From: an uncultured bacterium
Lineage (GTDB): Bacteria; Bacillota_I; Bacilli_A; RFN20; CAG-826
Assembly: GCA_949293175.1 (NCBI GenBank)
Contig: CASFCI010000003.1
Span: forward strand, 78,899-142,898
Length of the DNA: 64,000 nt
Direction: 5' to 3'
Below, piece by piece: positions 23,232 through 38,559 of this stretch; position 1 is the first letter of the stretch; the number at the start of each line of letters is the position of its first letter. Below the pieces are notes generated by a model. The model ran no database searches. It worked only from the letters and a program-made list of their open reading frames with translations, and had not been told where the DNA came from. A program made the position numbers and the translations under genes.

Positions 23232-24107
23232 TTAGGCGCCAACGTCGGCATCGGCGTCAAGGGCGCCGAAGGCCAATTTGATGTTGATCATCTTGCCGCT
23301 GGCATCGTTCTGGTTTTGGACGATCGCGCCTTCCATCCAGATGGAAACGGTGACGTATAGGCGATTGACCCCGGTTGTTCCTTGGATGTCGCCGAGGTAG
23401 CAGGCCAACTCTTCGTTGTTCGTGTTGTCGGTTGGCATCGGATCAACGCCTGTAACAGTGGTGAAGAAATTATCTCCTTCGCCATAGGTTGCGGTGTCAT
23501 CGGTTGTGGTTCCGTCGACATAAGTCTTTAAGCTACCGGTTTCGGACCCTTCGGTGTTCTGCATGAAAACGAAATGGCCGGGCTTGGTGATGTCGTTGGC
23601 GCCGAAAGACGTCGGCTGCTCGCTGCCTTCCGTCTGGGCGTTGATGGCAACTTTTGTCCACCTTGCCAGCGGCTCGTTTTCGGTGCCGGTTATCGAGGAA
23701 TTGGCGGAGTCGAAGTAGCAGCTGATGGGATCGGTGCCTTGGTTGCTCAGGACGATGCCGAAGGTCAGATAGCCTTCAGTAGTGGTCTTATAGGCGATGG
23801 GCTCATCCCCAGTGCCCCAAACAGGCGCGTAGAAGGTCTGACCCTCGCGGGAAGAGACGTCGTATAGCGGGGTGTCGGAGGTTAGTGTGGCGGTGTTGGT
23901 GGTGCCGCCGGTGACCGGAGCGGAGGCCTCGAGATCGAAGTAGCCGATGTTCAAATTGCCGCGGGTGTTGGTGGCGGTGATGTTGGTGATGTTCATGGTC
24001 GCGGTGCGCGAGGCGGTGAACCACGCATAGGTGCCGGTCGCCCCAGCGGCAACGGTGCCGACGGTGAGGGCGGAGAGGGCTAGTAAGAGTTTGCTCTTGG
24101 TTTTCAT
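23232..24107 (-). CDS. secreted protein with SipW-cognate class signal peptide (TasA/camelysin-like fibre subunit)
   Basis: N-terminus MKTKSKLLLALSALTVGTVAAGATGTYAWFTASRTA matches the TasA-type signal (…GTYAYFTD…). T/G/N-rich beta-type body. 291 aa. Confidence 0.7.
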   Translation of the reverse strand: MKTKSKLLLALSALTVGTVAAGATGTYAWFTASRTATMNITNITATNTRGNLNIGYFDLEASAPVTGGTTNTATLTSDTPLYDVSSREGQTFYAPVWGTGDEPIAYKTTTEGYLTFGIVLSNQGTDPISCYFDSANSSITGTENEPLARWTKVAINAQTEGSEQPTSFGANDITKPGHFVFMQNTEGSETGSLKTYVDGTTTDDTATYGEGDNFFTTVTGVDPMPTDNTNNEELACYLGDIQGTTGVNRLYVTVSIWMEGAIVQNQNDASGKMINIKLAFGALDADADVGA

Positions 24108-24345: not shown

Positions 24346-24729
24346 ATGGACAAAAAGAAGAAAATCCTGCTGTGGGCGGCGGGCATAGCCGAGGCCGCGA
24401 TTATCATATTCGGCCTGGTGGTATCGATTCTGGTGATCGTCACCTACAACTCCCCCGAGGAATTCCCGGCCACCTACAAAGAGCTCAACCTTGCGGAAAA
24501 CGGCCCGATGATCGGGTATTTCCAGAACAACGCGACGGTTTTCTTCCTCGTGATAGTCCTTCCCCTGCTGCTCATACTGGCCGTCGATATCGTCTACCTC
24601 GTCTACTTCGCATTGAAGCGGGAATCCAAGCTAAGCGACTCCGAGCGGAAGATCATCGCCGAGAAGGCGAAAGAAGAGGCCAAGGCGGAACTGTTGAAGG
24701 AACTGGAAGAGGAGTCGACCAAGAAATAG
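24346..24729 (+). CDS. small two-TM membrane protein
   Basis: Met at 24346 (MDKKKKILLWAAGIAEAAIIIFGLVVSILVIV...) is preceded by gaaagaag. Two hydrophobic helices precede a charged C-terminal tail. The tracked ORF start at 24031 overlaps the convergent TasA-like gene and is unlikely. Confidence 0.4.
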   Translation: MDKKKKILLWAAGIAEAAIIIFGLVVSILVIVTYNSPEEFPATYKELNLAENGPMIGYFQNNATVFFLVIVLPLLLILAVDIVYLVYFALKRESKLSDSERKIIAEKAKEEAKAELLKELEEESTKK

Positions 24730-24745: not shown

Positions 24746-24772
24746 ATCGCCCCACGCGGGCGTTTTATTTTG
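24746..24772 (+). terminator. putative intrinsic terminator
   Basis: CGCCCcacgcGGGCG followed by ttttatttt, just after the stop of the small membrane protein gene. Confidence 0.45.
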
Positions 24773-24784: not shown

Positions 24785-24816
24785 TTGACATGCACCGGCG
24801 ATAAGGCAAATAATAG
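24785..24816 (+). promoter_or_regulatory. candidate sigma70-type promoter (TTGACA ... TAATAG) for fibre operon 1
   Basis: TTGACA at 24785 and a TAATAG-like -10 near 24811; the spacing is long, so this is weak. It lies immediately upstream of the riboswitch-like leader. Confidence 0.25.
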
Positions 24817-24817
24817 C

Positions 24818-24900
24818 GGCGTGAAAGGCAAAGCCAGGGAAACCTGGCGGCGCAAAACTAAAGGGCCTAAGCGAAAGACGGCAGCCAGTTACCCCAGGAA
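24818..24900 (+). ncRNA. candidate c-di-GMP-I (GEMM-like) riboswitch aptamer, copy 1
   Basis: aGGCAAAgCC followed by hairpin CAGG-GAAA-CCTG (GNRA loop). Then GGCGCAAAACTAAAGGGCC, a CCUAAG element, and GGCAGCCAG. It resembles the GEMM core (GGCAAACC ... GACGCAAAGCC). It lies about 120 nt upstream of the operon start at 25021. Confidence 0.45.
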
Positions 24901-25020
24901 GCAGGAGATCATCTCCGCGGGCAACTGAGCTGCATTTTCCTTGCTTCCACTAGGGCTAAGCCCCCAATCCCCGGGAATGGATTCCAATGGTAATACCGAG
25001 GAGAAGGAGCGCCCGCCTTG

Positions 25021-25977
25021 ATGATAGGCGGAAAAAAGGATTTTTCAGCCGTGCCCAAAAAGAAGAAAGAGAAAAAGGTCAAGCAGGACCTGCCTAAGAT
25101 CGACGCCATCGGCATGAAGGGCGTTTTGACGCCCGAGAAAGCCGCCAAGCGCAGGAAGAGGCGGAATATAGCCATCGCCGTCGGCTCCACCTCAGCCGCG
25201 GTTTTGGCCATGCTCATGATCATCGCCTTCCTCGGAAGGGTAAGCGGCAACTTCACCATCTCCATCGACCCCCGCGATTTCTCAAATCGCCTGGGCCTAT
25301 CCTACGAGGTCGATGGCTCCATGACCTCAACCATGCTTGGATCGGGCCTATCCGAGGCCAAGCCGGTCGCGGCCAGTCAGGTGTTCAACCACATCGACAG
25401 CTTCGATTCCTCCGCGCAGCTTTCGGGCGAGAACTCGCTTTACGAGGGGGAAGGTGACAGTCGGCGCAACTACGCGCTCGTGTACACCTGGTACCTACGG
25501 AATAAGACCGACGACGAGGTGACCTACCGGGTCACGCTCAACGTCAGCGACTACGTATCCCCCACCAACGAGGCGATCGAGCCTTACGAGTATCTGCGCG
25601 TGGCCGTCTTCGTCAACCCGGTGCTGACCTTCCCGGGCGCCGAGCAGACCCACGACTACACCGTCTATGGGCTGCAGTCGCGCACCGCCGGGACCGCCGA
25701 GGACGATGACGACGTCAGGGAATGCATCTCGCAGTTCTCCACTGACGACGAGGGAAGAAGGAACCCGATGAGCACCGACAACCAGAAATCCTCGGGCTAC
25801 TGCACCCCCTTCCTCGACACCAAGGGAAGGATATTCGACCTATCGGGGATGACCATCGCCCCGAGCGCGGCGGTCAGGTACACGTTGGTGGCCTGGCTAG
25901 AGGGATACGATCCGGAATGCCGCGGAAAGGCACCTGAAGGCGCCTCGATGACGTTCTCGTTGGAATACCAGTCATAG
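25021..25977 (+). CDS. membrane-anchored secreted protein (TapA-like accessory/anchor candidate)
   Basis: ATG at 25021 has a strong SD (GGAGAAGGAG). The protein has a K-rich N-terminal region, one TM helix and an extracytoplasmic domain. It is the first gene of an 8-gene coupled operon. Confidence 0.5.
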   Translation: MIGGKKDFSAVPKKKKEKKVKQDLPKIDAIGMKGVLTPEKAAKRRKRRNIAIAVGSTSAAVLAMLMIIAFLGRVSGNFTISIDPRDFSNRLGLSYEVDGSMTSTMLGSGLSEAKPVAASQVFNHIDSFDSSAQLSGENSLYEGEGDSRRNYALVYTWYLRNKTDDEVTYRVTLNVSDYVSPTNEAIEPYEYLRVAVFVNPVLTFPGAEQTHDYTVYGLQSRTAGTAEDDDDVRECISQFSTDDEGRRNPMSTDNQKSSGYCTPFLDTKGRIFDLSGMTIAPSAAVRYTLVAWLEGYDPECRGKAPEGASMTFSLEYQS

Positions 25978-25981
25978 TTTC

Positions 25982-26959
25982 ATGGAAAGAAAAGGCAATC
26001 GGCTCGGCGTATACCTGGCCGTCATAGCCGCCTGCATGGGGCTGTCTTTGGCCTCATCCGTGACGGCGACCTACGCCTTCTTTGAGGTAAGCAGCTCGCA
26101 GAAGGTGCAGGGATTGGATTTTTCTTTCGCCGGCGAGGACGAGATAAAGATCGGGCTGCCGAACTCATTGCTAGGCGACGTCGCCTACTACCAAGACGTC
26201 GATTCCTCGATCCTGCAGGCCCATTACCCCGACATCCCCTCGTCAATAAGCACCGTCACCACGGCATTCGGGGGAAACAAAGGGGAGCTTCCGACCTTCT
26301 ACGCCGACCCGCCGCAGTTCACTAAAACCTCCCGCGGATTCATCCAGTTCGACGTGTATCTGCTGTCGAGCGAATCCTGCTATGTCTACCTAGAGGACGG
26401 CTCGGGCATTGAGGAGGACGCGACCTACAACCGAAGCCAGGAAGAGGCTTTGGGATTAGAGTCCGGAAGCCTCAAGCGGATAGAGCAGGCCAGCCGGATC
26501 GCCATGTCGTTTGACGGCGGCACCACCATCTTCGCCAAAGAGGGCCGCAGCATATCCTACGCCGCCCCGCTCGACCTCGACTTCGACGGCTATGCCGATT
26601 CAAAAGACGGCAAAGACGTCCTATACGGGGATTACCAAGGCGAGCCAACCTACATCCAAGACGAAGGCCACGTCTACCCCAACGGAGAGAAAACCGCGCC
26701 GGGAAGCCTGTCGATCGACCTAGACGGCGAAGGAATCGCGAAAGAGAGCAACGAATCCTTCTCTTCCTACGTCCACGACGGGGCCGCTTCCTCGCAGGGG
26801 AGCGCCGCCAAGCCGCTATTGCAGCTAGAGGCCAATAAGGCCAAGAAAATCACCATCAGCTTCTACGTCGAGGGCTTCGACCCCCTCGCGGACAACAGCC
26901 TAAGCGGGGCCCGGGCGAAACTAAGCCTCGGCTTCATCCCATTATTCCAAAACGACTAA
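25982..26959 (+). CDS. secreted protein with SipW-cognate class signal peptide (TasA-like)
   Basis: N-terminus ...LSLASSVTATYAFFEVSSSQK. 325 aa. Only a 4-nt gap from the upstream gene. Confidence 0.65.
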   Translation: MERKGNRLGVYLAVIAACMGLSLASSVTATYAFFEVSSSQKVQGLDFSFAGEDEIKIGLPNSLLGDVAYYQDVDSSILQAHYPDIPSSISTVTTAFGGNKGELPTFYADPPQFTKTSRGFIQFDVYLLSSESCYVYLEDGSGIEEDATYNRSQEEALGLESGSLKRIEQASRIAMSFDGGTTIFAKEGRSISYAAPLDLDFDGYADSKDGKDVLYGDYQGEPTYIQDEGHVYPNGEKTAPGSLSIDLDGEGIAKESNESFSSYVHDGAASSQGSAAKPLLQLEANKAKKITISFYVEGFDPLADNSLSGARAKLSLGFIPLFQND

Positions 26960-26968
26960 GGAGGGCAT

Positions 26969-28522
26969 ATGAGCGCTTACTTCGAATACCTAAAGCAGAT
27001 GATAATCGAGTTCTTCACCAACCTCGGACTTTTCTTCTCCGACGCGTTCGCCTATCCGTGGTCGAAGGTGCCGGGGCAGGTTGACTACTACAATTCGCTT
27101 TTCGCCAACTACTCGCCCGACTTCGGGGGAGGAGGATGGTTCTTCTTCATCCTGTTCCTAATCTTGCTCATCGCCGCCTTCGGGGCTTTGGGCTATCTTG
27201 TATACTACCTTATACGCCGCTACGTGCATTTCCGCGCCTCCACCGAAGACACCACTAAGTACCGCGAGGAGATCGAGCGGCTCAACCTCGAGCTATACCA
27301 CGCGCTCTCCGAGAAGGACCGCGTGTTGGGGCTGCAGGTCCATAGCCTAGCCACCGCCGGGATCGACGTCGACGCCCCCAAGGCGGAAGAAGGCGGGGAG
27401 AAGAAGGAAGAGGAGGTTAGCGAGGACGACGTCAGGTTCCCGAAGCTATGCGACGTCGACGCCCGCTACGCCACCCCGATGCGCCCCACCGTCCTGCCCG
27501 AGGACGCCGCCAATATATCGCTAGAGGGCATCTGCGAGCGGTTCCGCCTATTCTGCGCCTCCCAGCTCGGCCTTTACTACACCATCGAGACCATGCGGGA
27601 GTTCATCGCCTCCATCGGCACCTCCAAGATCATCATCCTCGAGGGTATATCCGGCACCGGCAAGACCTCCTTGCCCTACGCTTTTGGGCGCTTCATAAGG
27701 CACAACGCCGCCATCTGCTCGGTCCAGCCTAGCTGGCACGACCGCTCGGAGCTGCTCGGCTACTACAACGACTTCACCCACCGCTTCACCGAGACCGAGT
27801 TCCTCCGCGCCATCTACGAGGCCACCTACCGCGACGACCTATCCGTCGTCGTCCTCGACGAGATGAACCTCGCCCGCATCGAGTACTACTTCGCCGAGTT
27901 CCTCTCCATCATGGAGATGCCTAACGTCAGCGAGTGGAACATCTCATTGGTCGCCGCGCCGAGAAAAGACGACCCGAAGCACCTCACCGACGGGAAGCTC
28001 TTGATCCCGCAGAACATAATCTTCGTCGGCACCGCCAACAACGACGACTCGACCTTCACCATCACCGACAAGGTCTACGACCGCTCGATGTCGCTTTTCT
28101 TCGACAACAAGGGCATCCCCTTCGACTCGACCTTCACCGAGGCCTGCCCGCTGCCATACGAATACGTCGCCTCGCTATTCGAGAAGGCCAAGGCCGACTT
28201 CCCGCTATCGGCCAAAAACCGCGAGAAGTTCGAGTCCCTCGACGAGTTCGTCATCGCCAAGTTCCGCCTGGCCTTCGGCAACCGAATATTGCGCCAGATG
28301 GAGTCCTTCGTCCCCTGCTACGTCGCCTGCGGCGGGACCGAGCTCGAGGCCATCGACTACATCTTCGAGTCGAAGATCCTCAAGAAGTTCGAGGTGCTCA
28401 ACATCTCCTTCCTCCGCGATGAGCTGATGGACCTCGAGGCCGAGCTCACCAAGCTCTTCGGCAAGAACGAGTTCAAGCTGTCCAAAGCCAAGATAAGGAG
28501 CTTCCTCAAGACCGTAAGCTGA
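26969..28522 (+). CDS. membrane-anchored McrB-family AAA+ (GTPase-type) ATPase
   Basis: N-terminal TM helix (FFFILFLILLIAAFGALGYLVYYLI) and a coiled-coil. Walker A is IIILEGISGTGKTS. Walker B/McrB signature is VVVLDEMNLARIEYYFAEFLSIME (compare DEINRANxxxxFGEL). The NxxD-type segment FVGTANNDDS matches the McrB MNTADRS region. Confidence 0.65.
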   Translation: MSAYFEYLKQMIIEFFTNLGLFFSDAFAYPWSKVPGQVDYYNSLFANYSPDFGGGGWFFFILFLILLIAAFGALGYLVYYLIRRYVHFRASTEDTTKYREEIERLNLELYHALSEKDRVLGLQVHSLATAGIDVDAPKAEEGGEKKEEEVSEDDVRFPKLCDVDARYATPMRPTVLPEDAANISLEGICERFRLFCASQLGLYYTIETMREFIASIGTSKIIILEGISGTGKTSLPYAFGRFIRHNAAICSVQPSWHDRSELLGYYNDFTHRFTETEFLRAIYEATYRDDLSVVVLDEMNLARIEYYFAEFLSIMEMPNVSEWNISLVAAPRKDDPKHLTDGKLLIPQNIIFVGTANNDDSTFTITDKVYDRSMSLFFDNKGIPFDSTFTEACPLPYEYVASLFEKAKADFPLSAKNREKFESLDEFVIAKFRLAFGNRILRQMESFVPCYVACGGTELEAIDYIFESKILKKFEVLNISFLRDELMDLEAELTKLFGKNEFKLSKAKIRSFLKTVS

Positions 28523-28523
28523 T

Positions 28524-30650
28524 ATGCCAAAGGCCCGCACCACCCTTAGCCTTGCCGAGCGGGCATACCTAAGGAAGATAAAAACCCTGCTCACCCAAAG
28601 CGCCTCATTCTATGAGCTGCTGCTTTCGCTGCGCCAGGAGAGGAACACCTACCTCGCCCAGAAGTCGCGCCTCGAGGCCAAGTCCATCGACCCCTCCTTC
28701 ATCGACGAGCTCGAGAAGGGGTTCGACGCCATCGACGCGATCATCAAGAACCCCCGCACCTTCATCAAGGAGGACGACGTGCTGGTCGAGGCCGGAAGGG
28801 CCAAGCGGATCTCGCCCCGCTCGATAAGCCATCTGGCATCCCACACCCAATACGTCCATAACGTCGACGATGACGGCAACGTCACCCCGGAGAAGCTGAT
28901 GGTCCCGGAGTCCGACATCGACTACTGGATCTACGAGAACCGGTTCATCATGACCCTGATCAAGAAGTGCTCGGTCTTCATCCAGAAGAGACTTCTCTTC
29001 ATCAAGGACCATGGCGAGACCCGCGATTCCGAGGTGCTGCTGCTGCACACCGACCACAATGTCGGCGAGGTCAAGTACGAGGTCGACACCAGGATCAAGC
29101 TTTCCTGCGCCTCCACCGACTCGGGCAAAGCCAAGGTCAACGAGGACCTCTTGATCCGCCTCGCCAAGCTGCGCGAGCGGGTCGCCTACTTCGCCTCCTC
29201 GCCCTTCATGTCGGCCATGAAGGGGGCCAAGGAGGTCGCCAACCCGATCCACCCCACCAACCTGCTGGTCAAGAACCCGGAGTACAAGAAGGCCCTCGCC
29301 CTATGGAAGTTCATCGACTCCTACAAGGAACTCGGCATCGAGGTCTCCGTCAAGGAGGACAGCAAGAAGTTCAAAGACGACTACGTCGAGACGCTTTGCT
29401 CGCTTTTAGCCGCCTCGATCGTCACCCTCGAGGGGAACCTCGTCAAAGACGACGAGGTCAAGGCCAAGTCGACGAAGAAGAAGATAATCCCGAAGGTGCT
29501 CTTCTCGCTTGAGGACGAGACCTTCTACGACGGCCGCTTCCTCTACGACCAGTTCCCGCTCCGCGAGCGGAAGAAGATCAGCCCGCTCTACCCGACCGTC
29601 GAGGAATCGAAGGCCTACCGGGAGGAGTTGGAGCGCAAACGGGCCGAGGACAAGGCCAAGAAAGCCATCGTCGAAGCCGAGATCGAGCGCGCCAAGGAAC
29701 GCGAGATCGAGCTGCAGGCAAGGGCCAACCGCAAGATGCTAGAGGAACAGAGGAAGCAGGACGAGCGCGAGCTCATCCGCGCCGCCATCGAGGCCGAGAA
29801 GGCCAAGCTTTCCGAGCAGCTAGAGGCCAAGCGGAAGGCCGATCGGGCCGCCGAGGAGGAGCTGCGCAAGCTGCGCAAGGCGAGGATCATGATCGTCGAG
29901 GCCGGCAAGAAAGACCGCGCCGGAGAAAAGCCCGCCCCGAAGAGCAGCGACGGCTTCCCCGACGAGACCCCAATCGTCGTCGAGCAGACCCCGATCATCG
30001 CCTCCACCCCCGAGGAGCAGGGCATAAAGACCACCGTCGGCAAGCCCAAGCGGGTCCGCCGCACGGCCAAGAAAGTCACCAAGAAGGCCAAGCCGGCCAA
30101 GAGGGTAGAGGAAGAGAAGCCGCTGGAAGCGGAGACTGTTTCGGAATCGCCCGTCGAAGAGGAGCCAATCAAAGAGGAGGCCCCAAAGCAAGAGGACGTC
30201 GCCGCGATAATCTCCAGCGCCCCGGAAGAGGAACTGGCCAAACAGCAGTCCGCGCCCGCGGTGGAAGAGTCCGCCCCAATAGCCGAGGAGGCTCCCAAGG
30301 AAGAGACAAAGCCGGCGGAGGAGACCGAGCAAAAGCAGGATTCTTCAGAAGGTAAGGCCGAGGATAAAACCCCAGGCGAGCCCGAGGAAGAAGCCAAGGC
30401 CGAGCCGGAAAAGCCCGCAGATTCCAAGGATTCGGAGCAGGAAAAGCCCCAGGATTCAGCCTCGGAGAATAAGCCCGAGGATAAGAGGAAGAAGAAAGGC
30501 AAGGCCGCCCGCAAAGCCAAGAAAGAGGAGAAGAAGGCCGAGGAAGCCGCTAAGCCCAGCAAGCCGACCTACACCACCCTCAAGACCCGCTCCAAGCGCG
30601 GCGGCAGGAGCTTCGTCGTCGACTACGCTAGGAAAGGCAAAAGAAGATGA
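28524..30650 (+). CDS. partner protein of the McrB-like ATPase; structured N-half, coiled-coil, long E/K/P/A-rich disordered tail
   Basis: The start codon lies 1 nt after the upstream stop. Residues about 1-340 are ordered. Then a coiled-coil segment (EELERKRAEDKAKKAIVEAEIERAKE...). About 250 aa of acidic, proline-rich low complexity follow, ending in a K/R-rich patch. A McrC-like nuclease motif could not be confirmed. Confidence 0.5.
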   Translation: MPKARTTLSLAERAYLRKIKTLLTQSASFYELLLSLRQERNTYLAQKSRLEAKSIDPSFIDELEKGFDAIDAIIKNPRTFIKEDDVLVEAGRAKRISPRSISHLASHTQYVHNVDDDGNVTPEKLMVPESDIDYWIYENRFIMTLIKKCSVFIQKRLLFIKDHGETRDSEVLLLHTDHNVGEVKYEVDTRIKLSCASTDSGKAKVNEDLLIRLAKLRERVAYFASSPFMSAMKGAKEVANPIHPTNLLVKNPEYKKALALWKFIDSYKELGIEVSVKEDSKKFKDDYVETLCSLLAASIVTLEGNLVKDDEVKAKSTKKKIIPKVLFSLEDETFYDGRFLYDQFPLRERKKISPLYPTVEESKAYREELERKRAEDKAKKAIVEAEIERAKEREIELQARANRKMLEEQRKQDERELIRAAIEAEKAKLSEQLEAKRKADRAAEEELRKLRKARIMIVEAGKKDRAGEKPAPKSSDGFPDETPIVVEQTPIIASTPEEQGIKTTVGKPKRVRRTAKKVTKKAKPAKRVEEEKPLEAETVSESPVEEEPIKEEAPKQEDVAAIISSAPEEELAKQQSAPAVEESAPIAEEAPKEETKPAEETEQKQDSSEGKAEDKTPGEPEEEAKAEPEKPADSKDSEQEKPQDSASENKPEDKRKKKGKAARKAKKEEKKAEEAAKPSKPTYTTLKTRSKRGGRSFVVDYARKGKRR

Positions 30651-31432
30651 GGAAGTGGATCAGCTACACCATCAACGGCCTGCTCATCGCCCTGGTGGCG
30701 TTCTTTGCCTATTGCCAGATCTCGATGGTCGCCTCGATGGGTAGCAACTACGGCGTGCCCTCGGTATTCGGCTATTCCTTCCTCTACGTCGCGACCGACT
30801 CGATGGAGGGCGACCTGCCCGATTCGCTGCCGGTCGGCTCGGGCATCGTCATCAAGGACGAGGGGCCGGAGAACGTGCAGGTCGGGGACATCATCACCTT
30901 CTATTACCCCGAGCTCGGCGCGACCGACACCCACCGCGTCCACGAGATAGAGCGCAACCAGGACGGGACCCTCACCTTCTATACTAGGGGCGACAACCTC
31001 AACGCCCAGCTTTCCGGGGGATCCTGGAGCGAGGACTACCGCGAGGTGGTGCCGGAGTCCAATTACGTCGGCACGGTCGTATACAGCTCGCTGCCTTTCG
31101 GGAGCTTCCTAACCTACGTCAGCCCCCAGGTCCCCTCGGAGAAGAGCCATTCCAGCTGGGTGTTCCCGCTGCTGATCGTCACCCCGCTTTCCATCGCCGC
31201 CGTCTACTCCATAGCCGACATGGCCATCAAGCTGCGGAAAGAATCCAAGGCCGAGAAGGAGGAGCTCGAGCAGGCCAAGAAGCAATCCGGCATCGACTTA
31301 AACGACGAAGCCGCCGTTTTGGCCTTCGAGGAAAAGTGGCATTATAAGAAGGAGCTTCGCGAGGACATGCAGAAGCAGAAGGAAAAAGAGCTCCGAAAAT
31401 TAAGGAAAGAGCTTAGGAGGGAGAGAAGATGA
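30647..31432 (+). CDS. sipW: signal peptidase I, SipW/archaeal type (S26B)
   Basis: YVATDSMEG (SGSMEP-like catalytic Ser box), GDIITFYYP...THRVHEI and FYTRGDNLNAQ align with B. subtilis SipW motifs. C-terminal TM helix. ATGA overlap with the upstream gene. Confidence 0.75.
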   Translation: MRKWISYTINGLLIALVAFFAYCQISMVASMGSNYGVPSVFGYSFLYVATDSMEGDLPDSLPVGSGIVIKDEGPENVQVGDIITFYYPELGATDTHRVHEIERNQDGTLTFYTRGDNLNAQLSGGSWSEDYREVVPESNYVGTVVYSSLPFGSFLTYVSPQVPSEKSHSSWVFPLLIVTPLSIAAVYSIADMAIKLRKESKAEKEELEQAKKQSGIDLNDEAAVLAFEEKWHYKKELREDMQKQKEKELRKLRKELRRERR

Positions 31433-33021
31433 ACCAATCCCAGAAGCTTAGCCTAGGCCTATTCGCCGGGCTCGCCTGCCTCGACGCCGCCTGCTTCGCG
31501 GCCTTGATAAGCCTGTTGTCGCTCTCGCTTTCCTCCGGCCGCCCGGTCGCCGGGGACTCGCTTTGGGCGGTGCTCTGCCTATCGCTCTCATTCGCCATAT
31601 TGACCATCGGGTCTTTGTTCCCCCTATCGAGATTCATGACATCGTCGCTGAAGAGCAAGCGCATCAAGGAGATATTCGGCGAGGACCTTCCGATCTTCAC
31701 CCCAAAGCAGCTCGCCAGGATGGCAAGGAGGGCCAAGGCCGACGGCAGGAAGAACAAGCTGATCTGCCTCATGGTCTCGGTCAAGGGGCCGTCGAACTCA
31801 TCGGTTTCCTCGATGCAGAAGGAAAACGCCATCAAGGCCATGCGGCATTCCTACGATTTCCTCCGCGATAAATTGCCCTACGCCACGATCGGCTATTCGA
31901 TAATCGGCGGGTTCACCCTGCTCGAACTTGTCGAGGATGAGGCCGAGCGCCTCGACGAATACCGGGCCATCGTGCTCGAGCTTTCCTCCTCGCTGCAGAA
32001 CACCGGGGCCTTGCCCTACGCCTATCTTTTGGCCGGTGAATCCCGAAGGCTGGTAGAGAAGGGCAGGCGCATCGACGGCAAAGCGCTGCTGCAGGAGGCC
32101 GAATACGCCCTCCGGCATTCCGCCAACAACCGCCTTTCCTGCGACCTGCAGCCGTATAGCCCCTCCCTTCAGGAAGACGACGCGGCCCTGCACTGGCTCG
32201 ACACCGACCTCTCCTCCGCCATCGAGCGCGGCGAATTGATCGTTTTCTACCAGGCCAAGCGCTCGCTTAGAAGCGGCGGCTACTACGGGGCCGAGGCGCT
32301 GATCCGCTGGAAGCACCCCCGGAGGGGCCTATTGCCGCCATCGGTCTTCGTGCCCTATTGCGAATACTCCGGACGCATCGTCGAGATCGACCACTTCGTT
32401 TTCCTCTCCGCCTGCAAGGCAAAGCAGGAATGGGCCAAAGCCGGGAGGAAGCCGCTCACCATATCGGTCAACCTATCCCGCCGGACGGTATATGACCCCG
32501 GGCTGCTCGACTTCCTTTCCAGCACCGTCGAGAAGTACGGCGTCGACCCATCGGAGATGGAGCTTGAGCTAACCGAATCCCTCGCGGCCGAGAACCTGGT
32601 CTTCATCTCCTCGGTCATCAAGCGCATCAAGGAGCTCGGATTCAAGACCTCGATCGACGACTTCGGGATCGGCTATTCCTCGCTAAGTGCCCTCAAATCG
32701 ATACCTTTCGACGTCCTCAAGATAGACAAATCGTTCATCGACGACCTCGAGATCGAGAAGAAGTCCCGCGACATGGTCGGGTCGATCATCTCGCTGGTCC
32801 ATGCTTTAGGAATGAAGGTCGTGGCCGAGGGGGCCGAAAGCCTGAAGCAGGTCGAGATACTCTCCTCGCTCGGGGCCGATGGCATCCAGGGATACTACTT
32901 CTCCCGCCCGCTACGCAAAGACGCCTTCGAGGCGCTGGTCGAGGAAGACGAGGCCAGGCGCAGGAAGAAGGAGAAAGACGACCGCGATCGGCGCAAGGCC
33001 GAGAAGGAGGCAAGGCAATGA
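31429..33021 (+). CDS. membrane-anchored c-di-GMP phosphodiesterase (degenerate GGDEF + catalytic EAL)
   Basis: N-terminal TM region. The GGDEF position carries IGGFTLLE. EAL motifs are intact: EALIRW, ELELTES, DDFGIGYSSL, KIDKSFI, VAEGAES, QGYYFSRP. Confidence 0.8.
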   Translation: MNQSQKLSLGLFAGLACLDAACFAALISLLSLSLSSGRPVAGDSLWAVLCLSLSFAILTIGSLFPLSRFMTSSLKSKRIKEIFGEDLPIFTPKQLARMARRAKADGRKNKLICLMVSVKGPSNSSVSSMQKENAIKAMRHSYDFLRDKLPYATIGYSIIGGFTLLELVEDEAERLDEYRAIVLELSSSLQNTGALPYAYLLAGESRRLVEKGRRIDGKALLQEAEYALRHSANNRLSCDLQPYSPSLQEDDAALHWLDTDLSSAIERGELIVFYQAKRSLRSGGYYGAEALIRWKHPRRGLLPPSVFVPYCEYSGRIVEIDHFVFLSACKAKQEWAKAGRKPLTISVNLSRRTVYDPGLLDFLSSTVEKYGVDPSEMELELTESLAAENLVFISSVIKRIKELGFKTSIDDFGIGYSSLSALKSIPFDVLKIDKSFIDDLEIEKKSRDMVGSIISLVHALGMKVVAEGAESLKQVEILSSLGADGIQGYYFSRPLRKDAFEALVEEDEARRRKKEKDDRDRRKAEKEARQ

Positions 33022-33740
33022 TACTCATCGTCGGCGAAGACCAGGACGCCTTGCTCTACCTGCGCAACCGGCTAAACCTCGCCCGGGAGGAGAACATCAA
33101 CGACTACCTCCACGCCGCGGTTGGGACGCTCGGCGAGGAGAAGGTCGCCGTCTCCTGCGTTGGCATCGGGCTCAGCTTAGTCGGCATAAACACCGCCACC
33201 CTGCTTTCAGTATACGATCCGTATCTGGTCATCAACATCGGCTGCGTCGCCTCCATCAAGGGGACGCTCCACCAAGGCGACATCTTCATCCCCGAGCGCT
33301 ACTACGTCGAGGGCATAGACTATTCCGGCGACGGCAAGACCATATCCGGGCAGCTCCCGGGCCTGCCGCCTTTCTTCCTAACCGAGCCTAGCCTCGCCGA
33401 GAAGGCCGAATCAATCGGGTATGAGCTGGGCGGCAAATTCATTGAGCGCGCCTCCTTGCTAAGCGGGGACATGCGCCTGCTCGATGAACCAGAGTACCAG
33501 CAGAAGCTCAAGATGAGGTACGCCGGCTACTCGAGGCTCACCTGCTACGACAACTCCTCGTACGGCGTTGCCTTGGCCTGTTATCTCCGCAAAACCTCGC
33601 TTCTTTCGATAAAAGCCGTCAATTACGAGGCCAATGCCGTCTCCGAGCGGCTCAATTTCCGCCGCAAGGGACTCGAGGCGATGCCCTTCATCGGGCGCCT
33701 AGTGGCCGGGCTGCTGCTTAGCCTGTCGAAGGGCCGTTGA
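33018..33740 (+). CDS. purine nucleoside phosphorylase/MTA-SAH nucleosidase family (PNP_UDP_1) protein
   Basis: MILIVGEDQDA..., VAVSCVGIGLSLVGINTATLL..., YLVINIGCVAS and QGDIFIPE parallel MtnN motifs (MKIGIIGAMEEE / SGIGKVAAA / VINTGSAG / VGDIVVSD). It is the last gene of operon 1. Confidence 0.55.
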   Translation: MILIVGEDQDALLYLRNRLNLAREENINDYLHAAVGTLGEEKVAVSCVGIGLSLVGINTATLLSVYDPYLVINIGCVASIKGTLHQGDIFIPERYYVEGIDYSGDGKTISGQLPGLPPFFLTEPSLAEKAESIGYELGGKFIERASLLSGDMRLLDEPEYQQKLKMRYAGYSRLTCYDNSSYGVALACYLRKTSLLSIKAVNYEANAVSERLNFRRKGLEAMPFIGRLVAGLLLSLSKGR

Positions 33741-33765: not shown

Positions 33766-33793
33766 TTGATACGCTCCCGTATAAGTGTAGAAT
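33766..33793 (+). promoter_or_regulatory. candidate sigma70 promoter TTGATA-N16-TAGAAT for fibre operon 2
   Basis: It sits in an AT-rich spacer directly upstream of the second riboswitch-like leader. The geometry mirrors copy 1. Confidence 0.3.
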
Positions 33794-33797
33794 GAAC

Positions 33798-33875
33798 TCG
33801 ACAAAGGCAAACCTAGAGCGATCTAGGGGCGCAAAACTACAGGGCCTCTCCGAGGCAGCCAGGTGCCACTAATCC
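33798..33875 (+). ncRNA. candidate c-di-GMP-I (GEMM-like) riboswitch aptamer, copy 2
   Basis: aaaGGCAAACC followed by hairpin TAGA-GCGA-TCTA (GNRA loop). Then GGGGCGCAAAACTACAGGGCC, hairpin GGCCTC-tcc-GAGGC, and AGCCAGG. 18 of 19 identical to copy 1 over GGCGCAAAACTA(A/C)AGGGCC. It overlaps the tracked GTG start at 33863, which argues for the ATG at 33887. Confidence 0.5.
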
Positions 33876-33886: not shown

Positions 33887-36625
33887 ATGGCCACCTGTTC
33901 CTTCAAAACGAAATTAGCCCTATCGCTCACCGCGGCTTTTTCGTTTTTCGCCTTGGTCTTCTCCGTCGGCGGCATAACCTTGGCGGCCTACCTAAACGCC
34001 ATCGAGGCCGAGTATTCCAACAAGATCGGTTTCCGCGATCTGGGACAGTACTTCAACGGTGTCTCTACCGATTCCAATACTGGCAAGACAACCTACCAGA
34101 TAAGCAATGCGGATGAGTTCCGAAACCTCCAGATGCTGGTTTCGCTTGGGCTATTTGATGAAGATGACATATTCAATTTGACCTCCGATATCACCTGGAG
34201 TGGAACCGCCATGGCCCCGATCGGATCCGACGACATGCCGTTCAACTCGACCTTCAATGGCTGCGGGCATACCATATCCAACCTTCAAATCGCTTGTTCG
34301 GACGGGCGCGATGCCGGCCTTTTCGGGTATACCTCAATCAACAGCGAAGTGAAGAACCTCATCTTGGCAAGTCCCACCATCACCATCAATGCAAATTCAA
34401 ACGGTGGCAACGAGGTTTCGGGGTCACCGATTGAAGCGGTTTTGTCTACGGCGGCCAAAGGCATGCCAGAGATCGTGTTCTCAAATCCGGGTCAAGAAGT
34501 CACCGGAAGCATAAACGTCATCAACGATTCCGATAAGTCTCAATCCACCATCAAGGGATTCCCGCCAACCGTGCAAGACATCAACGGGAATTCTTACGAG
34601 GTCATATATGAATCGTCTGACGAAAACCTCATCAAAGCCCAGGGCGATGGATCTTTCCTGACTTTCAAAACTGAGACCGCGGCACCGAATTACGATCTTT
34701 TCGCCTGCACAATTACTTCCAAGGTTAAATACTTAATTGACGATAGGTTCGGATATTACGTTCTTGAACGTTATCAGTTCAACGTGTTGGGGAACGGCTT
34801 AGTCACAACTACCACAGATCAAGACGGCAACCACATGGGGGCGTTTAAGACAATCCACCCAAGCAACAACGAGCACAAAACATACGCCGGTTTTTTCATT
34901 GGGCACTGTGATGGAAAAGCCAATCATCTTGGTCTTGTTGGTGACGATGAGCAAGGCAATTTCAAAGCTAAATTAGTTATTAACGAAGGCTCCAGAAAGT
35001 ATATTTATTCATCAAGAGTCTTGATAGGGATGACAAGAAGCGACAACCCAATTGATGCCTCCGCCGGCGAATCAATGAGTATTACCTATGACTTTGATTC
35101 GCCAATCACCGAAGCGAATGTCACGAATGGCCCTACTGGAGAAATGTGGGTAAAAGACATAGAATCCGGATACGCAAATGCAAGTTATGCCTATGGGTCA
35201 AATTATTTAACTAACGAAGACCCGTATGATACCGGAAACGATAAAGATGTTAACCACCAGTGGGAAAACGCTGAGCTTCTAACCAAACCATACATTCCAA
35301 ACACAACCATTAGGGAATATTCGAAAATCTTTCCAGGCAGTAAACCATCCGCCGCGGAAGGGCCAAGCGGAACCAAACAAGCGACCAATTATTTTGCTAA
35401 CGTCAAACTCCCAGAATCCGATGAAACGACCAATAAAAGTTCATTCTTCGGCCTAGTTTTGGATGGTGGTTTAGGCGCCGGGACGATGACGCAAGTCGTT
35501 CATAAAGGAGGGTTGTTAAACTCCTATAGACGATGGGTAAGGGGCATATATGCAAATAACGGAATATGGCTTTGGTCAACAAAGAACCTCAGTCCTCTAT
35601 TCGGGGAAAACCTATTCTATATAAACATCAGGATTTCGTACGTTGCAACAAGAACTGGGGGCAATGAAGGACAAAACAGTTTTCAGATACTCGCAAATGC
35701 CTACAATCCCGAAGTAATATCAGGCGAAAATGAAGAACTGACTGGATCTTATGCGCAAAACTTATTTTGGCAGGACCTCCACTCTCCATACAATTACCAT
35801 CTCCAAAAGCAGGATTCTATGTACGATCCAACAAATTATCCAATCATAGACGATGGGAAGCTTCACTCGGCTGTTATTACATTGAAAATAGATCAAGACA
35901 ACAACAACTTTTTGGGTTCGATTTTCCAATCGTGGTTTGGAAACGAAAACTCCGAGATTCGATATCCAATGCTTGCAATAGGCATGGGTTCAAACCAAAA
36001 TCCGGACAGCATAAACGATTCTACGATGCGATACTATGCTGACATATATGAAGAAGAAAATTTAGTTGGCGATTCTCATTTTTTAACTTACGAAAGCAAT
36101 AAATTCGGATCTAATGGAAATGAAGACATAGGGAATTATTTATATGCCGCTTCCCTAATAGATGTTGGACTGGCCACTTATGGATATCAAACTTTCCAAA
36201 GAAACGGGGACGATACATTCCTTGGCTTGCCGAATTTGTCTCAAAGGTACCGAGATCACGAACGAGGCTATTTTAATTCTTATTTTACTGTAGAAAACGG
36301 CACCAAACTTTATATCAAGGATTTCCAAATGACCTTTACAAACAGGCAAGGAAACACCGAAGACATCATTTATGATGTCGATTATATTAATTCGCGAGAT
36401 CTCCCGATTTTTGAAGCTAATGCCTATTCTTACTGGCCAAGTTCGAGCAACGTATTGGTTGCATTCGACATAGACGGAAGTCAGGGGAACGAAGCTGTTT
36501 CTTTCTCTTTCTACCGGAATGCAAATGGCACGATATTTGGCAACTCCAGTAACACGAATGCTGGCTATGGTTTGACCAATTCTGGCGGAACGGGCTACAC
36601 CGACGCCACCTTGACGCAGGGGTAA
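33887..36625 (+). CDS. large secreted adhesin-like protein (SipW-cognate-like signal; GLUG/parallel beta-helix-like N-domain), AT-rich body
   Basis: N-terminus MATCSFKTKLALSLTAAFSFFALVFSVGGITLAAYLNAIEAEY. The GLUG-type motif is PFNSTFNGCGHTISNLQIACSDGRDAGLFGY. About 910 aa with an N/T/G/Y-rich beta body. GC drops sharply about 200 nt into the gene. The alternative tracked start at 33863 (GTG) overlaps the leader. Confidence 0.6.
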   Translation: MATCSFKTKLALSLTAAFSFFALVFSVGGITLAAYLNAIEAEYSNKIGFRDLGQYFNGVSTDSNTGKTTYQISNADEFRNLQMLVSLGLFDEDDIFNLTSDITWSGTAMAPIGSDDMPFNSTFNGCGHTISNLQIACSDGRDAGLFGYTSINSEVKNLILASPTITINANSNGGNEVSGSPIEAVLSTAAKGMPEIVFSNPGQEVTGSINVINDSDKSQSTIKGFPPTVQDINGNSYEVIYESSDENLIKAQGDGSFLTFKTETAAPNYDLFACTITSKVKYLIDDRFGYYVLERYQFNVLGNGLVTTTTDQDGNHMGAFKTIHPSNNEHKTYAGFFIGHCDGKANHLGLVGDDEQGNFKAKLVINEGSRKYIYSSRVLIGMTRSDNPIDASAGESMSITYDFDSPITEANVTNGPTGEMWVKDIESGYANASYAYGSNYLTNEDPYDTGNDKDVNHQWENAELLTKPYIPNTTIREYSKIFPGSKPSAAEGPSGTKQATNYFANVKLPESDETTNKSSFFGLVLDGGLGAGTMTQVVHKGGLLNSYRRWVRGIYANNGIWLWSTKNLSPLFGENLFYINIRISYVATRTGGNEGQNSFQILANAYNPEVISGENEELTGSYAQNLFWQDLHSPYNYHLQKQDSMYDPTNYPIIDDGKLHSAVITLKIDQDNNNFLGSIFQSWFGNENSEIRYPMLAIGMGSNQNPDSINDSTMRYYADIYEEENLVGDSHFLTYESNKFGSNGNEDIGNYLYAASLIDVGLATYGYQTFQRNGDDTFLGLPNLSQRYRDHERGYFNSYFTVENGTKLYIKDFQMTFTNRQGNTEDIIYDVDYINSRDLPIFEANAYSYWPSSSNVLVAFDIDGSQGNEAVSFSFYRNANGTIFGNSSNTNAGYGLTNSGGTGYTDATLTQG

Positions 36626-36631
36626 ACATCG

Positions 36632-37597
36632 ATGGGAAGCAAGAAGACATTGATATTGACCGCTGCGGTCAGCCTGCTGGCCACCTTGTCCATCTCGGTG
36701 GCCACCTACGCCTGGTTTTTGACCAGCTTCGGGGCCAATGGCGGCAAGACAATCAACCTGACCTCAGGCGTCAGCTCGGTCATGGTCACCGCCAAGGCCT
36801 ACTCGATGAACGCCGATGAGAACGGCGGTTTCAGCGCGAAGAACAGCATCTCCATCGACAAAGCCGGAAACGTCACCGCCGAGGAGCAGGCTACCGGCCC
36901 CACCATCAGCTCGAGTTCCCTATCCGTCTCGTTCAATCAGGTCCGGGATGCCTACGACTATCTGCCTCTATACGCAAACGAGGTGAGCCTAAACCGCGAG
37001 AAGCTGCCTCGGGCCTACGTCGAATTGGAGTACCGCCAGGACAATGTCGGAGGCTACGTGAAAGTCGACGTCGAGCCAGTTGTCAAGAATACCTCTATAG
37101 AATGGTCAAAATCCGGGGATGCGTCGACATTTGGCGCGTATCTTCGCAGCTTCACCTACCGCAACGACGAATCCGCCCCAACCAGCGAATCGATCAGACA
37201 AATGCTCGAGGATAGGACAGAAAACGGCGCAAATCCCGACTCCAGCGTCTGGACCTCGCTTTCCTCTACTGCCGACGTCTATTCGGGACAGCTGCACGTC
37301 AATCCGCTCAACCTATCGCAGAACGGCGAACTCTACTATTCCTGCGCGACCTTGCTCGAGATAACGATCGACCCGTTGCCGTTCCTTGATATGCTTATGG
37401 ACACCATGCAGTCCTTAGACCAAGCAACATCTGATACGGAGTCCACCGGCCAGGGAACATCTAGCGTCAAATTCGAGCTTTCGCTCAACTTCAAGCTCAA
37501 CATCAGCTACTCCTCCAGCCCGTTCCGGGAAGGGAATAACGAGCTGCCGGTGGCCGAGCTCAACCCAGGAAGCTTTCTAGAAGGGGGCAACGCATGA
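36632..37597 (+). CDS. secreted protein with SipW-cognate class signal peptide (TasA-like paralog)
   Basis: N-terminus MGSKKTLILTAAVSLLATLSISVATYAWFLTSFGANGG. 321 aa. Only a 6-nt gap from the upstream gene. Confidence 0.65.
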   Translation: MGSKKTLILTAAVSLLATLSISVATYAWFLTSFGANGGKTINLTSGVSSVMVTAKAYSMNADENGGFSAKNSISIDKAGNVTAEEQATGPTISSSSLSVSFNQVRDAYDYLPLYANEVSLNREKLPRAYVELEYRQDNVGGYVKVDVEPVVKNTSIEWSKSGDASTFGAYLRSFTYRNDESAPTSESIRQMLEDRTENGANPDSSVWTSLSSTADVYSGQLHVNPLNLSQNGELYYSCATLLEITIDPLPFLDMLMDTMQSLDQATSDTESTGQGTSSVKFELSLNFKLNISYSSSPFREGNNELPVAELNPGSFLEGGNA

Positions 37598-38559
37598 GGA
37601 AGGGCAAGCTATTGACAAAACTGCTCGCCATGTCGGTCGCCCCATTGCTCTGCTTGGGATCTTTGGGCGTGGCCACCTACGCCTGGTTCACCGCCTCGAG
37701 GCGGGCCGAGCTAGGCGTCAACGAGATCAAGGTGAAGGCCCCGGAGTTCCCGGATACCTTCAGGCTATATGCCTATAACGGCAACTCCCCAAGCGGCTAC
37801 ACCGACTACGCCTACCTATCCGCGATCGGCGAGGCCGACCAAGCGGCGACCATAGGATCAGGCGTTTCCTTCTCCAGCCAATTCAGCGAAATAACCGGAT
37901 CGGAATACCGCCTGGAGAACCTCTTCCCGAAGTCCTGCTACCTCTTCGCGCTTTTCTTCGAGAAGGGCGAGGACTTCAATTCATTCTCGCTTAGCCTCAC
38001 CGCCTCTTGCTATGGCGAGGCCAGTGAAGGGACTGGCAAAGCGGTGCTCTACAACATAGAGGATGACGGCAGCGAGGGTCTCAACCACGGGCAGCAGATC
38101 GTGCTGGCCTCGGCCATCGACGTCTACACCAAGACGCTGCAGCTTTCCGATTCGGAATACACCGCGGACGACGGGGTTCTCCAGCTTAGCGACGCCAACT
38201 CGGAAGCCGCCAACGCCTTCATCACCACCGACATGGGCAGCGGCGACCCGACCCTGGGCCAGGTTACCGGTCGGCTGGTGGAGGACAGGTTCGACTACTT
38301 CCAGAACCGCGACGATGACGACACCTCGGCGATAACCCGGCAGGTGGTCGAGGAGACCGCGATGTCCACTTCGGCTTGCCTGGTCCTAATCCAAGTCGAG
38401 TTCTCCGACTTCCCGGAGACCCATATGTCGCCCCTCGACGAATCCGATCCGTCGTCTGGGGCCGATTATTGGGAATTCGACCCGTCATCAAGCCTATCGA
38501 CGCCCTACCAGGGGCTGCCGTTTTCCATCGAGGAACTGACTCTAAGGGGGAATAGATAA
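37594..38559 (+). CDS. secreted protein with SipW-cognate class signal peptide (TasA-like paralog)
   Basis: N-terminus ...LCLGSLGVATYAWFTASRRAELGVNEIKVKAP. 321 aa. ATGA-type overlap with the upstream gene. Confidence 0.65.
   Translation: MRKGKLLTKLLAMSVAPLLCLGSLGVATYAWFTASRRAELGVNEIKVKAPEFPDTFRLYAYNGNSPSGYTDYAYLSAIGEADQAATIGSGVSFSSQFSEITGSEYRLENLFPKSCYLFALFFEKGEDFNSFSLSLTASCYGEASEGTGKAVLYNIEDDGSEGLNHGQQIVLASAIDVYTKTLQLSDSEYTADDGVLQLSDANSEAANAFITTDMGSGDPTLGQVTGRLVEDRFDYFQNRDDDDTSAITRQVVEETAMSTSACLVLIQVEFSDFPETHMSPLDESDPSSGADYWEFDPSSSLSTPYQGLPFSIEELTLRGNR

Follow-up and report, generated by a model that had tools for sequence, protein, structure and literature searches.

A 64,000 bp stretch of contig CASFCI010000003.1 (assembly GCA_949293175.1, positions 78,899 to 142,898), from an uncultured gut bacterium among the mycoplasma-related Bacilli (GTDB lineage Bacilli_A; RFN20), was analysed and is referred to below as the window. 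It carries a block of seven genes, g1 to g7, located downstream of a riboswitch for cyclic diguanosine monophosphate (c-di-GMP), which we consider reasonably probable to be a chromosomal system of the CoCoPALM type, that is, a c-di-GMP-induced machine making membrane-anchored TasA-like fibres. An earlier note, made from the sequence alone, had regarded the arrangement as not described; it was named CoCoPALM by Bell et al. (eLife 2024), and the locus is an instance of this already named, uncharacterised class.

The seven open reading frames (ORFs) run in the same direction on the + strand (25021-33740) and are translationally coupled, with junctions of 4, 9, 1, -4, -4 and -4 nt, their GC content is 0.57-0.62 throughout, similar to most of the window, and a + strand scan for terminator-like sites inside the block found none. 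The block had been described as an eight-gene operon; the spacings given for it are exact, but it holds seven genes, and the earlier note itself listed seven genes and six junctions. The genes are as follows.

25021-25977, + strand: g1, 318-319 aa, with ATG at 25021 according to the gene caller and an in-frame TTG at 25018; proposed fibre anchor or terminator.
25982-26959, + strand: g2, 325 aa; protein with a SipW-type signal and a predicted fibre subunit fold.
26969-28522, + strand: g3, 517 aa; predicted membrane-anchored McrB-like GTPase.
28524-30650, + strand: g4, 708 aa; McrC-like DUF2357 protein.
30647-31432, + strand: g5, 261 aa, overlapping g4 by 4 nt; SipW-type signal peptidase.
31429-33021, + strand: g6, 530 aa; EAL-domain protein with transmembrane (TM) segments.
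33018-33740, + strand: g7, 240 aa; nucleosidase-like protein.

The association of the GTPase pair with fibre genes is conserved over long distances. At least 8000 homologues of g3 were found, the top 120 of which are full-length and 55-99% identical, and a scan of one genome per GTDB species gave at least 571 g3 loci, of which the best 80 were examined. These 80 loci come from uncultured gut and rumen "Bacilli/Erysipelotrichaceae" metagenome-assembled genomes (MAGs), Ca. Enteromonas, Ca. Enterosoma, Acholeplasma, Paracholeplasma, Anaeroplasmataceae and "Mollicutes". Gene presence was counted with family hidden Markov models (HMMs) over all ORFs of the 80 loci, using as denominators the loci with enough flanking sequence. 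A g4 homologue adjoins g3 in 73/74 loci, SipW is present in 54/54, genes of the g2 family lie upstream in one to five tandem copies in 47/47, and a g1-family gene lies upstream of g3 in 32/32, whereas an EAL gene is found downstream of g3 in 39/49 loci and a g7-like gene downstream in 38/49, the latter only in the clade that also has g6. An Acholeplasma-type clade keeps the core despite a different order (riboswitch, anchor, two to four subunits, SipW, McrB-like gene, McrC-like gene and another SipW; TM-EAL genes lie upstream of the riboswitch), and g6 and g7 are absent from the operon in this clade. The order g1-g7 itself is kept in dozens of other genomes, so that the arrangement is far beyond chance. 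Because g1, g2, g3, g4 and SipW are co-inherited in all related genomes that were examined, the pair is an integral, vertically inherited part of the fibre system, and the comparison of loci supports its belonging to the fibre locus, not to an inserted restriction cassette. Five records with a Bacilli-type locus (L004, L050, L078, L002 and L013) are titled Escherichia coli, Bacteroides uniformis, Parabacteroides distasonis, Hallerella or Lachnospiraceae; these 'cleanbin' MAGs look like mislabelled bins.

A mobile restriction cassette sitting in a fibre locus is ruled out by the synteny, by the host-like GC content and by the lack of viral relatives, as no relative was found in 2.9 million viral contigs. 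The plasmid matches to g3 are distant CoCoNuT-like relatives only, lacking the TM segment, SipW and fibre genes. According to the earlier note, its reading would fall if g3 and g4 proved to be an unrelated, well-characterised mobile restriction module absent from orthologous fibre loci; the two proteins are indeed McrBC-derived, but they occur in every orthologous locus. Whereas g3 and g4 have a GC content typical of the host, the low-GC islands of the window (GC 0.33-0.46) carry defence-type genes. These islands, which look recently acquired, lie at 47098-49317, 62492-63550 and 51324-54293, all on the - strand, and their genes encode an RloB-like protein with an AAA_21/AbiEii-type ATPase, a protein with a Cap4 nuclease domain and a Metallophos protein of 989 aa.

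The g3 protein is laid out as a conserved, hydrophobic and aromatic-rich N-terminus of 59 aa, a TM segment at aa 60-78, a charged helical linker (~aa 85-125) and a GTPase domain at ~aa 200-517. The N-terminal 59 aa are net-acidic and basic residues follow the TM segment, which suggests an N-out/C-in topology. As a single sequence g3 gives weak matches to AAA_5 and McrB, AAA_5 is matched in 13/13 aligned family members, and the family profile matches the structures of E. coli McrB (6hz4) with an E-value of 2e-4. The g3 motifs GISGTGKT, LDEMNLAR and GTANNDDS align with GPPGVGKT, IDEINRAN and GLMNTADR of McrB (Walker A, Walker B and signature, respectively). Closer matches are the candidate family PDC-M26A of PADLOC (E 2e-39) and ATPases of ~800 aa on plasmids of Deinococcus and Nostoc, which are 34-42% identical to the g3 GTPase domain (E to 1e-60), carry ~400-aa coiled coils and are encoded next to a DUF2357 protein, which is the CoCoNuT architecture. 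In 79 homologues (44-99% identity) both Walker motifs and the signature GTAN[NKR]DDST are invariant, the N, D and D being fixed and the middle position variable; the signatures of the plasmid ATPases that align with this motif are GTANHDET and GTANTDES, and a gapless alignment with E. coli McrB also allows the N-x-D-D of g3 to be taken as NxxD. These features place g3, as a predicted membrane-anchored McrB-family GTPase, in the NxD branch, in line with the TM-anchored McrB-family GTPase of the earlier note, and the invariance of the NTPase motifs across the 79 sequences argues for an active enzyme under purifying selection. No DNA-binding domain was detected in the N-terminal 200 aa of g3 with Pfam or NCBIfam, or in 13 family members with Pfam. 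One source labels a g3 homologue 'FtsL'.

The adjoining g4 protein matches DUF2357, the N-terminal domain of McrC, with an E-value of 1.3e-6, above the Pfam cut-off, and was correctly anticipated as a 708-aa partner with a disordered tail. Its conserved core (aa 1 to ~340) is followed by a 108-residue helix at aa 359-466 and by a variable, disordered tail rich in K, E, P and A, and an AlphaFold2 (AF2) model of aa 1-470 (predicted local distance difference test score, pLDDT, 75.6) consists of helices, long beta-hairpins and a single long helix. No PD-(D/E)xK nuclease was found, there being no PF04411/PDDEXK match in g4 or in 120 homologues, and the g4 family has no conserved D...(D/E)xK pattern beyond the DUF2357 region. 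Judged by its domain content, g4 is a McrC-like DUF2357 protein with a predicted coiled coil and without a recognisable nuclease. The tail (residues ~470-708) is repeat-like and fast-evolving: total length is 685-711 aa among strains whose N-terminal 409 aa are 97-100% identical, tail length differs even between strains of 98-100% identity, and relative to locus L083 there is an indel at 30223-30402.

Kinship of this kind raises the question of a defence function, in which the pair would act as a CoCoNuT/McrBC-type sensor at the base of a fibre serving as phage receptor, and would trigger an abortive response (e.g. through g7) or shut the fibre down. The McrBC family is overwhelmingly defensive, the closest non-fibre relatives of g3 are the plasmid CoCoNuT-like pairs and the PADLOC candidate system, nucleosidases of the PNP family serve as effectors in some defence systems, and d920, a secreted protein of the neighbouring transcription unit, shows the hypervariability between strains that would be expected if it were exposed to phages at the surface. 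We nevertheless regard a defence module as improbable: g4 has neither a nuclease nor another recognisable effector, g7 lacks the catalytic residues and does not occur in the Acholeplasma-type clade, expression is coupled to a lifestyle messenger, and the pair, over 44-99% identity, is inherited vertically and strictly together with SipW and the subunits, with none of the patchiness of defence genes, with host-typical GC in comparison with the real defence islands of the window, and with no occurrence on viral contigs.

The substrates proposed for the system are recognised by their signals. g2 has the SipW-type signal TATYAFF (family consensus T.T.AWF), and the pattern T-[YFW]-A-[WFA]-[FY] after the h-region is found in g2, in the window proteins u291, d321a, d321b and d920 described below, and in g2-family members of other loci; the cleavage site of TasA itself, GTWA/AF, checked against 8AUR, follows the same pattern. 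The SipW-cognate signal assigned to g2 in the earlier note is therefore borne out by a T-aromatic-A-x-F motif after the hydrophobic segment. The mature protein was approached through 84 representative homologues obtained by an exhaustive search (a word-based search gave 2), and an alignment of 51 sequences was used for modelling. The AF2 model of g2 is confident (pLDDT 87.7, predicted template modelling score 0.78) and its best structural match is the TasA fibre, followed by FimH/FimG, CS17, CFA/I, the Sulfolobus 0406 thread, CooA, the Pyrobaculum bundling pilin, CanX, PapK, FimA and EcpD; Foldseek places the Sulfolobus thread first (probability 0.97). The scores of these matches are modest, and the list consists almost purely of donor-strand-exchange fibre subunits, so 'TasA-like' holds at the level of the fold and not of the family. 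The model thus supports a donor-strand-exchange subunit fold for g2, and the TasA-like fibre genes of the earlier note stand in this sense only. At the sequence level 21 members of the g2 family have no match in Pfam, NCBIfam or the PDB, and hhalign of g2 with TasA aligned the signal peptide and first strand only (probability 1.9%); g2 as a sequence homologue of TasA/camelysin (Peptidase_M73) is ruled out by these negatives, the predicted structure being the one approach that gave a signal.

The first gene of the block, g1, encodes a K-rich cytoplasmic N-terminus, one TM segment (~aa 51-69) and an extracellular domain, and has no SipW cleavage motif. Its C-terminus shares with g2 a ...R(Y)T.V.WLEGxDxxC... 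module (hhalign 92.6%, E 4.5e-7, 44 columns), and we propose that g1 is a fibre anchor or terminator. It had been put forward as TapA-like; there is no Pfam or NCBIfam match that would make it a TapA homologue, and it is instead a membrane-anchored relative of g2 sharing the C-terminal motif only. The SipW gene of the earlier note is confirmed in g5, which scores 61.4 bits with TIGR02228 (cut-off 51.85) and matches the SipW model with an E-value of 8e-15, below the equivalog cut-off. The SME(P), HR and GDN catalytic motifs are conserved in 56 homologues, and the protein has two TM segments and a K/E-rich cytoplasmic C-terminal tail; from its motifs, g5 is predicted to be a catalytically intact signal peptidase I of the SipW/Sec11 type.

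Control by c-di-GMP, which was only apparent when the earlier note was made, is now supported directly, and more strongly than could be seen then, by a riboswitch of the Rfam family RF01051 (gathering score 35 bits) located just upstream of g1 and conserved in relatives. The upstream features are as follows.

23232-24107, - strand: u291, 291 aa, a divergent gene for a secreted protein with the SipW-type signal GATGTYAWFTAS.
24346-24729, + strand: u127, a small protein with two TM segments and a K/E-rich tail (gene call and TM scan).
24785-24814, + strand: promoter-like site 1, TTGACA-18-AATAAT (11/12 matches), ending 3 nt before aptamer 1.
24817-24896, + strand: c-di-GMP-I riboswitch aptamer 1, RF01051, 63.3 bits.
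24881-24933, + strand: expression platform of aptamer 1, a terminator-like hairpin (-26.5 kcal/mol) followed by AUUUUCCUU.

Aptamer 1 scores 87 bits with R1, a model that we built from the riboswitches. The 5' arm of the platform hairpin is the 3' strand of the aptamer, including the P1 3' strand, and pairs with 24917-24933. Since the ligand-bound aptamer and the terminator are mutually exclusive in this predicted architecture, c-di-GMP should switch the g1-g7 operon ON. Relatives of lower GC have a textbook terminator in the leader, e.g. AGCCAGUUGUCAUU...AAUGACAGUUGGCU-UUUUUUU in an Acholeplasma MAG, and a hairpin sharing the aptamer strand was found for 23/53 related riboswitches under a strict gapless rule, and for more when bulges were allowed. 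An Rfam scan of related loci detected a c-di-GMP-I riboswitch in 7/7 tested, and our own model found 59 copies across the 80 loci, with a copy on the same strand upstream of g3 in 49/80, most of the remaining loci without a detected riboswitch having too little upstream sequence. Some Acholeplasma-type loci have two to three tandem c-di-GMP-I riboswitches before the fibre operon (L079, 127-440; L063, 1895-2114; L076, 6011-6200), each with a terminator-like hairpin.

The small u127 gene has its own terminator-like hairpin directly 3' (24748-24762), and its family is present upstream of g1, just before the riboswitch, in ~45 related loci according to the family HMM; u127 may be a constitutively expressed part of the g1-g7 machine. 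The divergent u291 gives a weak match to TIGR04088 (cognate_SipW, E 0.01), its equivalents in other loci are matched by the g2-family HMM, and it is probably a further fibre subunit.

The fibre locus comprises two units, g1-g7 and d920-d321a-d321b-d999, each headed by a promoter-like site and a riboswitch; the promoter-like site directly preceding each riboswitch is what points to two transcription units. The second unit consists of the following features.

33766-33793, + strand: promoter-like site 2, TTGATA-16-TAGAAT.
33796-33870, + strand: c-di-GMP-I riboswitch aptamer 2, RF01051, 52.6 bits.
33887-36625, + strand: d920, 912 aa, a secreted protein with the TasA-like SipW site GGITLAAYLN.
36632-37597, + strand: d321a, a SipW-signal protein (SVATYAWF).
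37594-38559, + strand: d321b, a SipW-signal protein (GVATYAWF).
38562-41561, + strand: d999, 999 aa, a multi-TM protein with a C-terminal EAL domain (Pfam E 3e-9).

The 3' strand of aptamer 2 can pair with the start-codon region of d920, the predicted fold being weak (z -0.7). d920, the middle part of which is low-GC and strain-variable, is a candidate tip or adhesin component. In the strain of locus L082, whose operon shows 96.9% identity, nothing matches this low-GC middle at the nucleotide level (34791-36591) and identity over d321a/b (36591-38465) is only 87-89%, the corresponding distal genes encoding 944, 310 and 319 aa as against 912, 321 and 321 aa in the window, and the distal fibre or adhesin genes thus appear to be hypervariable or exchanged between strains. 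The EAL domain of d999 is degenerate (EAF, with no DDFG or EGVE), relatives of d999 are kept downstream of g7 in most related loci, and the protein may be a c-di-GMP receptor. Upstream of the locus, the region 16475-23040 (- strand) holds membrane and lipid genes that also lie beside the locus in its closest relative L001, encoding a cardiolipin-synthase-like PLD protein, a Zn-dependent phospholipase-C-like protein, an MFS transporter and a 715-aa protein resembling Wzy_C/O-antigen ligase.

The last two genes of the block add a signalling component. g6 has two TM segments and an EAL domain (Pfam E 1.7e-64) in which the catalytic motifs EAL, N, ExxE, DDFG, KxD, EGxE and QG are all present and conserved, and is predicted to be an active EAL c-di-GMP phosphodiesterase. 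It had been annotated as a TM protein with a degenerate GGDEF and an EAL domain; the TM and EAL parts of this annotation hold, but no GGDEF domain, degenerate ones included, was found in Pfam at E<=0.1. g7 matches PNP_UDP_1 and scores 50.3 bits with TIGR01704, below the cut-off of 73.8. The likeness to MTAN seen earlier is real in sequence and does not extend to the catalytic residues: when g7 is aligned with S. aureus MTAN (3bl6), Ala, Asn and Tyr take the places of Glu12, Glu174 and Asp197 (E. coli numbering), and the g7 family conserves residues other than the MTAN catalytic set. g7 as a working MTAN is ruled out by these replacements.

With so much signalling at the locus, the pair could instead be a regulatory GTPase switch or checkpoint that performs no mechanical work on the subunits, sensing the state of export or assembly at the membrane, or the GTP and c-di-GMP status, and licensing SipW cleavage or signalling to c-di-GMP turnover through g6 and d999. 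Donor-strand-exchange fibres such as TasA self-assemble, so that a switch would suffice. The locus encodes an EAL phosphodiesterase, a degenerate-EAL membrane protein and a nucleosidase-like pseudo-enzyme, and the K/E-rich tails on SipW, g6 and g4 suggest docking and not translocation. McrC-type partners, moreover, stimulate the GTPase, as Niu 2020 is cited in PMC11090510. Two points speak against a switch. AAA+ hexamers in which the Walker B and sensor motifs are strictly invariant normally perform work by cycling, and the Acholeplasma-type clade keeps g3 and g4 without g6 and g7 in the operon, so the role of the pair is independent of these signalling genes. On balance we think a switch unlikely.

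The reading that we favour, a c-di-GMP-induced fibre machine, would work as follows. At high c-di-GMP the aptamer would be stabilised, termination prevented and the operon turned on. The subunits would be exported by Sec and tethered by their signal anchors until SipW frees the N-terminal strand, which would enter the neighbouring subunit, and g1 would hold the fibre in the membrane because of its non-cleavable anchor and its related C-terminal module. A g3 hexamer, plugged and stimulated by g4, would form a platform on the cytoplasmic face, tied to SipW, g1, g6 and u127 through the K/E-rich tails, and GTP hydrolysis would power or gate the processing of subunits and their insertion at the fibre base. 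Negative feedback would come from g6, which would lower c-di-GMP again. The host lineages lack sortases and are often peptidoglycan-deficient, which makes a membrane-based device for anchoring and assembly plausible. A stronger version, which we put forward as a doubtful possibility, is that a nuclease-less, membrane-anchored derivative of McrBC is the motor or gate of an unrecognised class of pilus-assembly machine, in which a GTP-driven hexamer couples SipW cleavage to donor-strand insertion and g1 is the terminal anchor.

The same geometry would also suit a machine for extraction and quality control, or for retraction, whose ring pulls uncleaved anchors, the K-rich tail of g1 or mis-assembled subunits from the membrane and so clears the SipW site, or dismantles fibres when c-di-GMP falls. 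Each of the substrates has an N-terminal tether, with a short basic tail in the cytoplasm close to a cytoplasmic ring, and the AAA_5 clade includes the remodelling chaperones MoxR, RavA and GvpN. Nevertheless, no protease partner is present and c-di-GMP switches the operon on, not off, and such a machine seems to us very improbable.

Several points weigh against the fibre-machine reading itself. No need for energy is established, since TasA and the archaeal thread and bundling pili are believed to form without an NTPase; the link of the GTPase to fibre assembly is putative, and the energised assembly, secretion or remodelling module suggested in the earlier note is likewise hypothetical. The nearest non-fibre relatives of g3 are candidate defence systems, the topology of its N-terminal 59 aa rests on prediction, and its TM and coiled-coil part shows no significant homology to FtsB/FtsL (Pfam matched FtsL in 1/13 family members, E 0.13, and LapA_dom in 2/13). 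The U-tract of the window's own terminator is poor, and no riboswitch was detectable in 5 of the ~32 loci with long upstream flanks; these five (L010, L017, L031, L059 and L078) have at least 8 kb of upstream sequence and the full gene set with no c-di-GMP riboswitch of any Rfam class, so regulation there must differ. The reading also gives g7 no role.

In the textbooks McrBC is a restriction enzyme; at this locus the GTPase and activator subunits have acquired a membrane anchor, have lost DNA binding and the nuclease, and are inherited over long evolutionary distances only with a signal peptidase and TasA-like subunits. If the pair works in fibre biogenesis, it would clearly exemplify the conversion of a defence motor into a device for assembly at the cell surface, and could explain how fibres are attached in sortase-less, often wall-less gut and rumen Bacilli (RFN20-like organisms and Acholeplasmatales), which are very common in animal guts. 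If the motor or gate proposal is true, wall-less or thin-walled, sortase-less Bacilli would build and hold adhesive fibres under direct c-di-GMP control, and the McrBC family would have its first demonstrated function outside defence and nucleic acids. The conserved ON-type riboswitch and the phosphodiesterase within the operon make a simple, testable circuit in organisms whose c-di-GMP biology is essentially unstudied. For CoCoPALM the analysis provides a locus map (anchor, one to five subunits, McrB-like gene, McrC-like gene and SipW, with or without an EAL and a nucleosidase-like gene); new here are control by riboswitch together with its polarity, a substrate fold resembling TasA and the threads, the anchor, the distinction between conserved core and clade-specific accessories, and the evidence of non-mobility.

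Bell et al. (eLife 2024) gave the name CoCoPALM to "another large clade" belonging to the NxD branch of McrB GTPases, described it in three sentences and deferred its analysis. In that description the GTPase carries a fused FtsB-like domain made up of a TM helix and a coiled coil, a gene of the signal-peptidase family is associated, and coiled coils are usually present on both the McrB and the McrC homologue. A literature search found no later paper using the name, and no CoCoPALM content in the supplementary text of the CoCoNuT paper; no paper connecting SipW or TasA with McrB or DUF2357 was found, and searches that included Acholeplasma or SipW with c-di-GMP riboswitches returned nothing relevant beyond the CoCoNuT and C. 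perfringens bsa papers. The locus resembles the CoCoPALM description in g3, an NxD-motif GTPase with an N-terminal TM segment and helical part beside the CoCoNuT branch, in the adjoining DUF2357 McrC homologue with a coiled coil, and in the signal-peptidase gene. The architecture of g3 fits the FtsB-like feature, although the homology is not significant. Absent from the description and present here are the c-di-GMP riboswitches, the TasA-like SipW substrates, the anchor g1, and the EAL and nucleosidase-like genes, and the restriction to Acholeplasmatales and related gut Bacilli is likewise absent from it.

In function the nearest comparators are the tapA-sipW-tasA operon of B. subtilis and the sipW-bsaABC operon of C. 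perfringens. Compared with tapA-sipW-tasA of B. subtilis, the locus is alike in having SipW beside its substrates, the T-aromatic-A/x-F motif, a subunit fold closest to TasA and an accessory anchor or nucleator gene in first place, and unlike in that there is no sequence homology between g2 and TasA/Peptidase_M73 or between g1 and TapA. It adds the GTPase pair, the phosphodiesterase and the riboswitch; regulation is by a c-di-GMP RNA switch as opposed to SinR/Spo0A, and the anchor is a membrane protein, whereas that of B. subtilis is wall-associated. The sipW-bsaA-bsaB-bsaC locus of C. perfringens encodes SipW-dependent, TasA-like subunits that undergo donor-strand exchange and are anchored in the membrane and not in peptidoglycan, and efficient release of the oligomers depends on an NTPase-driven apparatus, namely type IV pilus genes (PMC11580942; PMC7395162). 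Its energy-using apparatus is an unlinked type IV pilus system, and it has no McrBC-like pair and no riboswitch. For the host lineages of the locus studied here, an absence of sortases and a frequent deficiency in peptidoglycan have been reported (PMC10868615).

With McrBC of E. coli and T. gammatolerans the locus shares a McrB-type GTPase domain of the hexamer-forming kind, a DUF2357 partner, and adjacent, translationally coupled genes. It differs in having a TM segment in place of the N-terminal DNA-binding domain, in lacking the PD-(D/E)xK nuclease, in the NxD(D) of g3 as against NxxD, and in a pair that is neither patchy nor mobile. The CoCoNuT systems (CnuB/CnuC) have in common with it the GTPase domain, the GTANxD(D/E)(S/T)T motif and the DUF2357 partner, but CnuB has a ~400-aa coiled coil and no TM segment, nucleases or RNA-binding domains are present, and the systems are found on plasmids and in defence islands. 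Chaperone-usher pili depend on a chaperone in the periplasm and an usher in the outer membrane, both of them absent here. No NTPase is known for the archaeal threads (Saci_0406) and bundling pili (AbpA), fibres whose subunits are among the structural matches of g2.

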